Assembly: GCA_039809385.1 (NCBI GenBank)
Contig: JBDHUY010000006.1
Span: 32,001-96,000, forward strand
Source of the DNA: Candidatus Altimarinota bacterium
GTDB taxonomy: Bacteria; Patescibacteriota; Gracilibacteria; JBDHUY01
Direction of reading: 5' to 3'
Length of the DNA stretch: 64,000 nucleotides
Shown here: positions 8,198 through 55,316 of the stretch, in pieces
How the letters are laid out: every line of letters starts with the position of its first letter
Numbering within the stretch: position 1 is the first letter of the stretch
Position numbers and translations under genes: made by a program
The notes under the pieces: generated by a model
What the model was told of the DNA's origin: nothing
Databases searched by the model: none
What the model saw: the letters and a program-made list of their open reading frames with translations, nothing else

Positions 8198-8305
8198 AGT
8201 ATGAGGTATTATGTATAAAGTATGGGAGACTCCTCAATAAGGTCGTAATGAACTGCTTAATTAAGAATACTTACTACTTACTACTTCCTACATTATACTT
8301 AATAC
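8198..8305 (+). repeat. Inverted pair of 7-nt arrays with no gene inside
   Basis: agtatga ggtatta tgtataa agtatgg ... atactta ctactta ctacttc ctacatt atactta. Confidence 0.8.
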
Positions 8306-8316
8306 CCCTGTCCCTC

Positions 8317-8619
8317 ATGTCCCTTCCCCAACCCGGCATCTACCGCCATTACAAAGAAAATCTCTACCGTGTTCTGGGCACGGGACGTCACAGCGAAACC
8401 CTCGAAGAATACGTAGTCTATCAGGGACTCTACGATTCGCCCGAATTTGGTAAAAATCCGCTCTGGGTACGCCCCCTCAATTTGTTCCAGGAACAGGTAA
8501 CGGTAGATGGTCGATCGATACCTCGATTTACCTACATCGGACCCGAGAACGAGAAAGTATTGGAAGATAGAAGAGAGCGTGGAGAATCAAGAATCGAGGG
8601 AGAAGACATCGAATCTTAA
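8317..8619 (+). CDS. DUF1653 domain protein
   Basis: PGIYRHYK..LYRVLG.GRHSETLEEYVVYQ.LY...WVRPL.LF...RF; start ATG 8317. Confidence 0.9.
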   Translation: MSLPQPGIYRHYKENLYRVLGTGRHSETLEEYVVYQGLYDSPEFGKNPLWVRPLNLFQEQVTVDGRSIPRFTYIGPENEKVLEDRRERGESRIEGEDIES

Positions 8620-8675
8620 AAACCGCCACCCGTTCCTTTATAACGGATCTCTACAAATTCCCCTCTGTTTCCCCT

Positions 8676-8703
8676 TTTGACTTCGGACTTTTGACTTGTG
8701 ACT
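8676..8703 (+). repeat. 4 x 7-nt array before sufU
   Basis: tttgact tcggact tttgact tgtgact. Confidence 0.75.
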
Positions 8704-8715
8704 CATCCTCCCCGT

Positions 8716-9087
8716 ATGGACATCTATCAGGAACAAATACTCGACCTCTACAAGCACCCTCTCAATTACGGAAAACTGGAAAAAGCCCAGATTGTTCGAC
8801 ATGAGATCAATCCGACCTGCGGTGACGAAATTACCATGTACCTCTTGTTTGAAGGTGATATACTCAAACATATTACATTTGAAGGCAAAGGCTGCGCTAT
8901 CAGCCAAGCCAGCGCCAGCCTGCTCACAGAGTTTTCAACCGGAAAGTCCATAACCGAACTGGAAGGAATCGGCAAAGCAACGATCCTGGAAATGCTGGGA
9001 ATCGAGCTTGGCCCCACTCGGCTCAAGTGCGCGTTATTATCATTACAAGCATTATCGAGAGGAGTACTGGAGTACAAGAAACAATAA
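8716..9087 (+). CDS. sufU: SufU/IscU-family Fe-S scaffold
   Basis: YQEQILD, NPTCGD, GCAISQASAS, RLKCALL; start ATG 8716. Confidence 0.93.
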   Translation: MDIYQEQILDLYKHPLNYGKLEKAQIVRHEINPTCGDEITMYLLFEGDILKHITFEGKGCAISQASASLLTEFSTGKSITELEGIGKATILEMLGIELGPTRLKCALLSLQALSRGVLEYKKQ

Positions 9088-18488: not shown

Positions 18489-18671
18489 CCATAAATGCGC
18501 TCGGCTTGAGCTTGTAAAATCTCATTTTTTTTGTATGCTAAAGTAAATATCAAAGCTTAAAAGTCACAGCTCAAAAAATTAATTACTTTCAGACTTTATT
18601 CCTCAGATCTAAGCATTTTTTACTAAGAACTTTTGACTTTAAGTACCTTATAAACTTTATAAAATCCTCCT

Positions 18672-19427
18672 ATGTCCGGACACAGCAAATGGGCCACCAC
18701 CAAACACCACAAAGCCATCGTCGACGCGAAACGCGGCAAATCGTTTAGCCGTCATTCCAAAAACATCATCGTCGCCGCGCGCTTGGGCGGCGGCGACCCG
18801 GCCATGAACAACGCGCTCGCCCTCGCTATCGAACGTGCTAAAGCCGACAACATGCCAAACGCCAATATCGACCGCGCCATCAAAAGCGGAACCGGCGAAC
18901 TGAAAGACGGGGCCGAAATCAGCGAAGTCATGTACGAAGGCTACGGTCCGGGCGGCGTAGCCGTGCTAATCCGAGTTTTGACCGACAACAAAAACCGGGC
19001 CGTCGCCAACGTCCGGCATACCCTGGAAAGCAGCGGCGGATCCCTCGGGACCAGCGGCACCGTCGCCTGGATGTTCAAACGCAAAGGCACTGTCACCATT
19101 CCCATAAACGGAAAAGATCGAGATTCGCTCACCCTCGAGTTGATCGATCTGGGTGCCGACGACGTCCAGGATCACGGAGATGCCTTACTCCTTATCACGG
19201 AAGCGACGAAACTTCCCCAACTGCAGGGGACGTTGAAAGAAAAGAAAATAGAATTTGCGAATCCTGCCGTGTCCTACATCGCCGACAATCTCGTTCCCGT
19301 AAACGACGAAGAAGTAGCCAGAAAGGTTCTTAAAATGATGGAAAAACTCGAAGAAGACGAAGACATCGACGAAGTATTCAGTAATTTCGATATGGAGGAG
19401 GGAGTGATGGAGAAAGTAATGGGGTAG
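18672..19427 (+). CDS. yebC: YebC/PmpR-family protein
   Basis: MSGHSKW, YEGYGPGGVA, TDNKNR, VFSN. Confidence 0.96.
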   Translation: MSGHSKWATTKHHKAIVDAKRGKSFSRHSKNIIVAARLGGGDPAMNNALALAIERAKADNMPNANIDRAIKSGTGELKDGAEISEVMYEGYGPGGVAVLIRVLTDNKNRAVANVRHTLESSGGSLGTSGTVAWMFKRKGTVTIPINGKDRDSLTLELIDLGADDVQDHGDALLLITEATKLPQLQGTLKEKKIEFANPAVSYIADNLVPVNDEEVARKVLKMMEKLEEDEDIDEVFSNFDMEEGVMEKVMG

Positions 19428-19457
19428 CGGTCAGCGGCTAGCGATGAGCGGTTAGCA
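19423..19457 (+). repeat. 5 x 7-nt array, left arm around the four-helix-bundle gene
   Basis: ggtagcg gtcagcg gctagcg atgagcg gttagca; contains the yebC TAG. Confidence 0.85.
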
Positions 19458-19498
19458 ATACAAGGAACAGGATACGTAATTTTTTATGAGAAGTTATC

Positions 19499-19864
19499 AT
19501 GATAAAACTTCCTTTCACAAACCTCTCTATCTGGCAGAAAGGGATGCAATTGGCACATGATATTTATCAAATCGCTAAGAAGTTTCCCAAGGAAGAACTA
19601 TTTGGTATTACTTCACAAATGAGAAGATCATCATTATCGATCCCCAGTAATATTGCAGAAGGAAGTCAACGATCAACCGATAAAGACTTTGCCCATTTTA
19701 TTTCAATGGCAAGGGGATCATTAGCAGAACTTCAGACGCAAAGCATATTCTCGTATGAAGAGAACTATATTTCTGAATCTGAACACTACAGCATTCAGGA
19801 CAAGATTATCGAACTAAGCAAAATGCTACGTTCATTTTACAAAAAGCTAACCGCCGACCGCTAA
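19499..19864 (+). CDS. Four helix bundle protein (23S rRNA intervening-sequence protein / Avd-like family)
   Basis: L.IWQK, FPKEELFGITSQMRRSS.SIPSNIAEG, F...ARGS..E..TQ. Confidence 0.93.
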   Translation: MIKLPFTNLSIWQKGMQLAHDIYQIAKKFPKEELFGITSQMRRSSLSIPSNIAEGSQRSTDKDFAHFISMARGSLAELQTQSIFSYEENYISESEHYSIQDKIIELSKMLRSFYKKLTADR

Positions 19865-19879
19865 CCGCTGGTCGCTTGT
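19845..19879 (+). repeat. 5 x 7-nt array, right arm (complement of 19423-19457)
   Basis: agctaac cgccgac cgctaac cgctggt cgcttgt; contains the gene's TAA. Confidence 0.85.
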
Positions 19880-19884
19880 ACCCT

Positions 19885-20580
19885 ATGGAAAGAAGGTTCT
19901 TCATTCTCAAAGCCATTGTCGAGAGTTTCATCGAATCGGCCGAACCGGTCGGTTCCAAATATTTGATGAAAAAATACGATATGGAAATCAGTCCGGCTAC
20001 CATACGGAATGACATGTCCGTGTTGGAGCACCTTGGACTAATCTACCAACCCTTTACCTCAGCTGGACGGATCCCCACCGATCTGGGGTTCCGTATGTTC
20101 GTCGACGAACTGATGGATGAGATCCCCCAGGTCCGGGAACTGAAACAGCAAGCCAGCGCGCAGATAAAAAGCCTGCGCCACGAAGAACGCGTCTACAATG
20201 CCGTGTCGCTTCTAGCCCGTACCTGCGACAATGTCAGCTTTGCCATGTTACCGGAGCAGCATCGCGCCTACTACCTCGGATTGGCTAATATCTTACGCAA
20301 ACCCGAATTCACTGAATCGGCCAAAGCCTATACTGTAGTCAAAATCCTCGAAGATGCCGACAATTTCATGGAGATCCTCAACAGTCTCTCTATCGACGAA
20401 AAAACCAAAGTATTTATCGGCCGGGAAAATGTCATTCCCGAAATAAAAAGCTGCAGTATCATCGCTACCCGCTACAGCATAAAAAACTATGGCTCGGGGA
20501 TCTTGGGCATCTTGGGCCCTATTCGTATGAACTACCCTTTCAATATTGGTGCGCTGGAGTATGTGAAGAAGGAGTTGTAA
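19885..20580 (+). CDS. hrcA: Heat-inducible repressor HrcA (short form)
   Basis: ILKAIVESFI.SAEPVGS, SPATIRNDM..LE..GLI.QPFTSAGRIPTD.GFR, GILGPIRMNY. Confidence 0.93.
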   Translation: MERRFFILKAIVESFIESAEPVGSKYLMKKYDMEISPATIRNDMSVLEHLGLIYQPFTSAGRIPTDLGFRMFVDELMDEIPQVRELKQQASAQIKSLRHEERVYNAVSLLARTCDNVSFAMLPEQHRAYYLGLANILRKPEFTESAKAYTVVKILEDADNFMEILNSLSIDEKTKVFIGRENVIPEIKSCSIIATRYSIKNYGSGILGILGPIRMNYPFNIGALEYVKKEL

Positions 20581-34688: not shown

Positions 34689-34838
34689 AGTATGTAGTAT
34701 AAGGTATTAGGTATAACGTATGGGACAAGGAGGAGCCAGTTGAGAGTGTGAAGAGAGAGAAGAAGAAAGAAACAAGAAAACAGTTAAAATTTGTTCTGTA
34801 TCAAATCCTAGATTCTATATTCTAAATTCTAGCTTCTG
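34689..34838 (-). repeat. Two 5 x 7-nt arrays between miaB and the NYN gene
   Basis: Plus strand: agtatgt agtataa ggtatta ggtataa cgtatgg (34689-723) and aatccta gattcta tattcta aattcta gcttctg (34804-838). Confidence 0.8.
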
Positions 34839-51982: not shown

Positions 51983-52099
51983 ACATGCAGATTCATGAAT
52001 CCCAAATACTGCTTGGGATTTTTGCTAAGTTATGGACCAGGACGTATTTTTCGTCCTTCTTGCCATAAACTACTAGTCAAATTTGAGCAGAAAGAAAAA

Positions 52100-55316
<3,217 letters not shown>

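Follow-up and report, generated by a model that had tools for sequence, protein, structure and literature searches.

In a 64,000-nucleotide window of the genome of a Candidatus Altimarinota bacterium (contig JBDHUY010000006.1, positions 32,001–96,000), the whole junction between yebC and hrcA is occupied by a 457-nt element (19423–19879). It lies in the sense orientation, i.e. co-oriented with the operon, and consists of a left array of five 7-nt units, a gene for a 121-residue four-helix-bundle protein of the PF05635/TIGR02436 family (“23S rRNA intervening sequence protein”, S23p), and a right array of five 7-nt units. The element is, with high confidence, a conserved cassette of the intervening sequence (IVS) type. 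Our overall reading, which we consider probable, is that of a selfish IVS-type cassette in a protein operon, with arms that serve as a processed stem and repeats that are read by its own protein. A heptamer-armed IVS bearing an open reading frame (ORF) is known from Coxiella 23S rRNA; new here, as far as the searchable literature goes, are the presence of such a cassette in an operon and the layout as a family-wide rule outside rRNA.

The Cassette between yebC and hrcA

The arrays, the gene, and their placement are as a sequence-only reading of the window had described them, with arms of 5 × 7 nt and both stop codons inside the arrays. The yebC gene (TACO1/YebC family; 18672–19427, on the + strand, as are all parts of the cassette and hrcA) ends in a TAG (19425–19427) within the first heptamer of the left arm (19423–19457), the units of which (ggtagcg, gtcagcg, gctagcg, atgagcg, gttagca) follow the sense pattern NNNAGCG and are of the TAGY/AGN core type. 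An A/T-rich spacer of 41 nt (19458–19498) leads from the left arm to the ATG of the PF05635 gene (19499–19864), the last six codons and stop codon of which (TAA, 19862–19864, in the third right-arm unit) are encoded within the right arm (19845–19879; agctaac, cgccgac, cgctaac, cgctggt, cgcttgt). The right-arm pattern, CGCTNNC, is the reverse complement of the left unit. As judged against a relative of the same family (G001), hrcA (19885–20580) likely starts at the ATG at 19885, 6 nt past the right arm.

Both focal arrays have a marked 7-nt period: self-match at a lag of 7 is 18/28 for the left array and 19/28 for the right, and lags of 5, 6, 8, and 9 give 3–7 matches. The left array is the weaker arm and falls just under the threshold of our strict genome scan for period-7 arrays (15/21), in which the right array alone is called; Tandem Repeats Finder (TRF) reports the left array as period-14. 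The arms, which had been proposed to be roughly complementary, are 81% complementary over 31 nt (25/31), above all 300 shuffles of 19300–20000 (maximum 22/31, with 0/300 reaching 25). In the computed minimum free energy (MFE) fold of the RNA, 19419–19457 pairs with 19846–19886 over ~34 bp and the whole gene is looped out, with an MFE of −133.9 kcal/mol (z −4.84) that is equalled by 0/100 shuffles. A search of public sequencing runs listed 13 DNA runs and no RNA run; a contig from one of the DNA runs spans the cassette and is identical to the window over 18736–19907.

The neighboring genes encode a seryl-tRNA synthetase, a hypothetical protein, YebC, HrcA, a TrmB-like regulator, and another hypothetical protein. 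A domain search found no transposase domain in the cassette or its neighbor genes, and no match to the reverse transcriptase model RVT_1 was found in the genome (1.87 Mb, 26 contigs, 95% complete), in keeping with the earlier statement that neither enzyme is encoded nearby. The ORF matches PF05635 with 136.4 bits (E 5.3e-40, cut-off 33.8) and TIGR02436 with 130.4 bits (E 3e-38, cut-off 24). Matches to the models of Avd, the accessory protein of diversity-generating retroelements (DGRs), lie below the curated cut-offs (PF22296, 35.6 bits, cut-off 40; NF033474, 35.1 bits, cut-off 80), and a DGR role in the present genome is unlikely because no reverse transcriptase was found in it. Of the relatives with solved structures, the nearest, 2GSC (E 1.5e-21) and 2RLD, were each deposited with five chains, from which the focal protein is predicted to be a ring-shaped homo-oligomer. 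No catalytic domain was recognizable in family-model searches or with PADLOC, which gave no meaningful match. Among the matches listed, the nearest named homologue is from a Candidatus Peribacteria metagenome-assembled genome; phage records gave no match to a PF05635-type gene, and 42 plasmid records, mostly cyanobacterial, carry one.

Comparison of the junction in relatives revealed empty sites of the kind that the sequence-only reading had envisaged. YebC was found in 40/41 genomes of the class, and in the loci examined in 29 relatives hrcA follows yebC in five. In G001, the only relative from the same family, the yebC stop and hrcA start are 3 nt apart with no insert; the two genes are adjacent in G015 and G024 (by tblastn coordinates), and in G006 they are separated by a 124-nt spacer without a PF05635 gene. 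A more distant relative of the same class, G005 (locus L021, 2236–2790), has a PF05635 gene, 42% identical to the focal one, at the yebC–hrcA junction, and is the only relative so placed among those examined; its arrays are NNTAGCT-like and its right flank is broken by ~110 N, so that an ancient insertion and an insertion hot spot are indistinguishable. A bracketed PF05635 copy lies upstream of yebC in G026, and neither yebC nor hrcA stands beside the gene in any of 138 loci from other genomes. A target-site duplication is not definable, the G001 empty-site junctions aligning too poorly. As a separate observation, YebC contains many in-frame TGA codons (4–20) in G012, G022, G029, G030, and G034 of the same class, which fits TGA recoding in part of the class; there are none in YebC of the window’s own genome.

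Homologues in Other Phyla and the Heptamer Cores

The bracketed layout was found around most of 138 homologues from other genomes. Scanning one genome per species by pattern gave at least 595 relatives, of which the best 80 were kept, yielding 74 usable loci. The groups represented are Bacteroidota, Clostridia, other Bacillota, Planctomycetota, Acidobacteriota, Chloroflexota, Verrucomicrobiota, Collinsella, Thermodesulfobacteriota, Ignavibacteria, Paceibacterota, and Cyanobacteria, i.e. at least 11 phylum-level groups when three cyanobacterial plasmid loci are included. Bacteroides thetaiotaomicron, part of a control set, likewise matched PF05635. A period-7 score of at least 0.70 was reached by 88/148 flank windows of the 74 loci, compared with 24/1168 control windows elsewhere in the same loci, so that the flanks of homologues are enriched in period-7 arrays, as the sequence-only reading had predicted. 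The corresponding counts for period 8 are 10/148 and 3/1168, and a lenient TRF search for arrays of period 7, 8, 14, 15, or 16 was positive in 132/148 flank windows versus 98/805 controls. Arms with an 8-nt period occur in a minority of cassettes (L074, L092, L098, L108, L111, L117, and C8:34700–35160 of the window’s own genome), with, for example, AAGGTTCA-like units.

The left–right complementarity of the focal arms likewise recurs among homologues. Local alignment of the left flank with the reverse-complemented right flank scored at least 28 in 50/81 loci, compared with 1/405 when the right flank was shuffled, and same-strand (direct) alignment of the flanks reached this score in 9/81. Two other subfamilies gave similar results (C9-type, 19/29 versus 0/145 shuffled; C4-type, 20/28 versus 0/140). 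The median arm, as aligned, is 32 nt long. Heptamer arms were also present in two of the three cyanobacterial plasmid copies (Nostoc punctiforme and Anabaena sp. 90); in the latter (plasmid pANA02, L184, locus 1180–1548), the cassette, with GGTGACA/TGTCACC arms, lies between cas6 and cas4-cas1d in a type I-D CRISPR-Cas operon.

The placement of the cassettes relative to host genes is also regular. The PF05635 gene is co-oriented with its upstream neighbor in 66/71 loci and with its downstream neighbor in 66/71 (three loci lack a neighbor on each side), compared with a baseline of about two thirds of adjacent gene pairs in the window’s own genome. In the 43 loci with aligned arms, the cassette is 430–546 nt long and the spacer between left arm and gene is 7–69 nt (10th–90th percentile). 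The upstream stop precedes the left arm by 3 nt in the median (inter-quartile range −10 to +2), and from the right arm to the first start that the downstream gene could use the median distance is 10 nt (inter-quartile range 1–17), distances that are tight partly by construction, as the search extended to 80 nt beyond the arms. The cassette thus appears to replace the entire spacer between two co-oriented genes, and formation of the stem would put the host genes a few nt apart. The sense orientation and the filling of the junction fit a life in transcripts.

Each repeat unit combines conserved positions with positions that are free to vary, even from one unit to the next in a single array. In the sense left arm, the core of the focal subfamily is T-A-G-Y (frequencies.56,.79,.67, and.57), that of the C9-type subfamily is C[T/G]AAA (C,.80; T/G,.83; A,.90/.92/.76; 29 relatives from the same phylum, 50–64% identical), and that of the C4-type subfamily is NNNAAAA (28 relatives), the core logos having been phased to seeds picked by the analyst. 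All three core types coexist in the window’s own genome. The distance between consensus units is 2.78 within and 3.52 between subfamilies (0/2000 label permutations as extreme), and the base following AG in the focal subfamily requires 10 changes on the protein tree, compared with 20.4 for shuffled labels (0/300 as low); kinship inflates both statistics. Whether the cassette’s own protein reads the heptamer cores is, in our judgment, evenly poised. The protein may be the likely reader because three cores in one cell cannot be explained by a host factor, e.g. RNase III, and because a plain stem needs no periodic core.

Copies and Gene-less Arrays in the Same Genome

The window’s own genome contains 10 PF05635 loci, all of which, as judged by eye, have repeat arrays on both sides, with the right set complementary to the left; the strict scan calls arrays beside six of the 10 genes. 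Across these copies the units are NNNAGCG, NNNAGTG, GTATNNN, ACAGCNN, GTGAAAA-like, GTCAAAA-like, ATTAANN, and AAATTCK, and one copy has units of 8–9 nt. Similarity of the proteins goes with similarity of the units: AGCG units flank the focal copy and AGTG units its paralogue of 62% identity, and the two AAATTCK-flanked copies are each other’s closest relatives. Single-linkage clustering of the unit consensuses merged them all into one cluster and was set aside. Among the 10 copies, two are broken (C8:34762–35089 and C6:2085–2465), one being split by a frameshift and one having a degenerate C-terminal half; their arrays are kept.

Arrays with a 7-nt period are frequent in this genome as a whole, with 328 found compared with 17 after shuffling; counts for periods 5, 8, and 9 hardly depart from background, and that for period 6 is slightly elevated. 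A crude coding mask covers 85% of the genome, and 271 of the 328 arrays lie outside it. The number of units peaks at 4–5. In spacers between co-oriented genes, one array in four is at most 17 nt away from the upstream stop, and one in four at most 9 nt away from the downstream start. Away from PF05635 genes there are 317 arrays, 154 of which are within one mismatch of a resident cassette unit (89 expected). Inverted array pairs within 1.5 kb number 23: in five, with loops of 362–416 nt, each loop holds a PF05635 gene; 12, with loops of 16–281 nt, are gene-less; and six are wider, enclose ordinary genes, and may reflect chance matching among unit families that recur. A family search of the genome found no match to gene remnants in the gene-less loops, and their origin by deletion is unsupported. 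Most arrays are not obvious hairpins, because a complementary partner within 700 nt (at least 19/24) was found for just 44/328, compared with 26 in the control.

Within the window, a gene-less intergenic pair (8201–8305) consists of four GTATNNN units and five to six NNNATAC units, a unit type found beside the contig C3 paralogue as well. Other heptamer arrays between genes, likewise with no four-helix-bundle gene, lie at 1265–1301, 8674–8703, 18550–18638, and 34697–34837, several of them ending a few nt before a start codon; in the last region, the arrays at 34697–34721 and 34803–34837 flank one spacer and are mutually non-complementary. Separately, C/T-rich stretches (ctccccc, ccctc, cctcccc) are found just 5′ of start codons at 1300–1312, 8305–8320, 8700–8716, and 19879–19887, where they occupy the expected place of a purine-rich ribosome-binding site and may bear on translation start in this host.

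The 23S rRNA gene in the window (52098–55316, − strand; Rfam) is ~294 nt longer than the model. An ORF-less insert (54538–54710, − strand) in the loop of a hairpin at Rfam LSU model position 583/584, which we take to be helix 25, explains ~180 nt of this excess, and a further ~110 nt lies outside the insert. Heptamers of the AAATTCK / C[T/G]AAA type make up both arms of the insert (54538–54593 and 54655–54710), and arrays of the C[T/G]AAA type also flank the C9-type paralogue of the same genome. One genome thus contains three forms: gene-bearing cassettes between protein genes, gene-less intergenic hairpins, and a gene-less rRNA IVS with like arms.

Mechanism, Rival Explanations, and Meaning

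The closest known counterparts of the focal cassette are the ORF-bearing 23S IVSs (Leptospira and Coxiella; helices 25 and 45), which share with it the S23p/PF05635 ORF family, a similar size (~430–760 nt in the literature; 457 nt here), and terminal inverted repeats that form a long stem around the ORF, as computed for the focal RNA. The focal copy differs in that its place is an operon, between two protein genes, and not an rRNA helix, so that its excision would cut an mRNA. The sequence-only reading had allowed that repeats beside this family might have been noticed before, and one such case exists: as described in a paper on Coxiella, a 428-nt insert in helix 45 carries an S23p ORF and has termini that form a stem of 28 bp, its arms contain three tandem GACAGAT heptamers and a degenerate fourth, different strains have different numbers of repeats, and RNase III cuts the stem where the first repeat begins (PMC4990558). 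In the full-text literature, with subscription journals, supplements, and database comments outside reach, this was the only paper found with heptamers beside the gene, which it gives as a strain-variable detail; no description was found there of the layout away from rRNA, of cores that differ by subfamily, of insertion in the sense orientation at gene junctions, or of a link to intergenic heptamers.

More distant likenesses are instructive with respect to the protein and the repeats. Avd has a homologous four-helix-bundle fold, is a pentamer, and matches the focal protein weakly in sequence; Avd is a basic protein that acts together with nucleic acid. In contrast with an Avd system, the focal match is below the cut-offs, and the genome has no reverse transcriptase that was found and no template/variable repeat pair. 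TRAP, the target of which is a run of regularly spaced (G/U)AG cores, is also a ring homo-oligomer (as predicted for the focal protein from its PDB relatives), and the focal T-A-G-Y core likewise occurs once per unit; however, TRAP has an unrelated fold, with 11 subunits and 11 triplets, whereas the focal repeats form two inverted arrays of variable unit number around their own gene. REP/REPIN (repetitive extragenic palindromic) elements and their RAYT genes are alike in layout alone, i.e. a gene flanked by inverted short repeats that are also dispersed between genes as gene-less hairpin pairs. RAYT is a Y1/HUH enzyme, whereas the focal protein has no recognizable catalytic domain, and REPs are single palindromes, whereas the focal repeats are tandem heptamers. 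The short tandemly repeated repetitive (STRR) sequences of heterocystous cyanobacteria are short intergenic arrays of tandem 7-nt units of unknown function; they resemble the arrays studied here in this respect, and the Nostoc punctiforme and Anabaena sp. 90 plasmid copies are bracketed by heptamer arrays. No STRR–PF05635 link was found in the searchable literature. The focal cassette differs from transposons and miniature inverted-repeat transposable elements (MITEs) in lacking a transposase domain and a definable target-site duplication.

As we picture it, the cassette would be transcribed by read-through from the host operon, and the arms would pair in the mRNA into the computed stem of ~34 bp, closing off the insert and rejoining the two host cistrons. 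Host RNase III, a gene for which is encoded in the present genome, would cut the stem as in rRNA IVSs, freeing the loop mRNA. The cassette’s own protein, assuming the pentameric ring of its solved relatives, would read the repeats, one core per unit; TRAP-like binding to single-stranded arms would compete with the stem, and could control processing, translation, or propagation. We judge it on balance likely, if narrowly, that the arms act as an RNA stem cut by RNase III. The earlier proposal of an mRNA stem that loops out the gene stands as far as the fold, the RNase III gene, and the Coxiella precedent are concerned; it is not borne out by G.U bias or by an influence of unit order on pairing.

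Several observations weigh against the reading of a selfish cassette with a processed stem and a self-encoded reader. Among 208 arm mismatches, 34 are compatible with G.U pairing in the sense strand, 64 are compatible in the antisense strand, and 110 are transversions, i.e. there is no sense-strand G.U excess. Shuffling the unit order of the right arm changes its match to the left arm from 0.827 to 0.809, and the 5% level is reached in just 2/45 loci. The arms thus match as arrays of one unit, because shuffling the order of the units barely lowers their identity, and what is selected seems to be the repeated unit and not the single base pair, which argues against a purely RNA-stem reading; inverted protein-binding sites, as DNA-level ends, fit the arm data at least as well as a selected stem. 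The layout is not clear in every homologue: both flanks pass the period-7 threshold in 31/74 loci (at least one in 57/74), and the third cyanobacterial plasmid copy has no complementary arms. No excision joint across the cassette was found in contigs of four public DNA runs, contigs that are no evidence on excision in either direction. The literature searched contains no report of heptamer binding by the PF05635 family, and the subfamily statistics carry the inflation by kinship given above. The number of units per array peaks at 4 and 5 (40 and 41 of 132 arrays; median 4.9) with a spread from 2 to 17, and the two arms differ by at most one unit in 33/58 loci; exact-core chain counts were set aside for this purpose, as they undercount degenerate units. 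The idea that five units would suit a pentamer is therefore loosely supported, by the mode and median and not by the range. Unit numbers are compatible with one ring per arm and do not amount to a sharp rule, and a strict correspondence of one unit per subunit is doubtful.

In a rival explanation that we regard as rather unlikely, the cassette is a mobile element at the DNA level: the arrays would be terminal inverted repeats made of protein-binding sites, the protein would pair the ends, a host or trans-acting enzyme or hairpin replication slippage would move the cassette, and the RNA stem and RNase III cuts would be by-products. The apparent selection on units rather than base pairs, the lack of a sense-strand G.U excess, the specificity of cores to protein subfamilies, the differing presence of the insert at yebC–hrcA among relatives, and the dispersal of gene-less pairs and solo arrays (154 of 317 arrays near resident units) all speak for it. 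A DNA-only model does not, however, predict the 93% co-orientation or the exact filling from stop to start, and a five-membered ring would be hard to fit on a straight duplex with a 7-bp period; moreover, the protein has no recognizable catalytic domain, no transposase is nearby, a target-site duplication is not definable, and the contigs of the four DNA runs contain no excision joint.

A host regulatory module, with the protein as a TRAP-like post-transcriptional regulator and the arrays as operators that tune the translation or coupling of neighbors such as hrcA, would account for the abundance of period-7 arrays outside the coding mask, their proximity to stops and starts, and the resemblance of about half of them to resident cassette units. 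We nonetheless consider it improbable, given that neighbor genes are unrelated between genomes (yebC or hrcA at 0/138 other loci), the insert is missing from the nearest relative G001, the genome’s 10 copies include two broken ones, other phyla have few arrays at a distance from the gene (24/1168 control windows), and just 44/328 arrays have a complementary partner within 700 nt, versus 26 in the control. The richness of this genome in heptamer arrays could also suggest a chance landing of the gene in pre-existing simple repeats, or an assembly artefact. This is barely credible, as the bracketed layout recurs in phyla where such arrays are otherwise rare, the contig from the independent public run spans the cassette without differences, and the arm complementarity exceeds that of all 300 shuffles.

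The PF05635/TIGR02436 family is very widespread and of unknown function, with 134/401 sampled genomes of the phylum matching one subfamily alone, and it is named for a location that is rare: of 40 related loci tested, 0 lie in rRNA. At a practical level, heptamer arrays can mislead gene-end and repeat callers in annotation, and cassette insertions could explain spurious gene “associations”, e.g. with CRISPR adaptation genes, as for the Anabaena copy between cas6 and cas4-cas1d; a published CRISPR survey lists the domain, in a figure legend, among associates of the adaptation module. We tentatively suggest, as a possibility that goes well beyond the focal cassette, that PF05635 genes with inverted heptamer arrays form a previously unrecognized class of mobile cassettes that crosses phyla, the sole gene of which would encode a non-enzymatic pentameric reader with a subfamily-specific code. 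The rRNA IVSs would then be copies that landed in rRNA, and the gene-less arrays of this genome, and possibly the cyanobacterial STRR sequences, would be ORF-less offspring, as REPINs are to RAYTs. If true, this would bring rRNA intervening sequences and inserts in ordinary operons under one heading and offer an origin for enigmatic intergenic heptamer repeats. The conserved packaging would give the PF05635 family a testable job: the reading of its own repeats.

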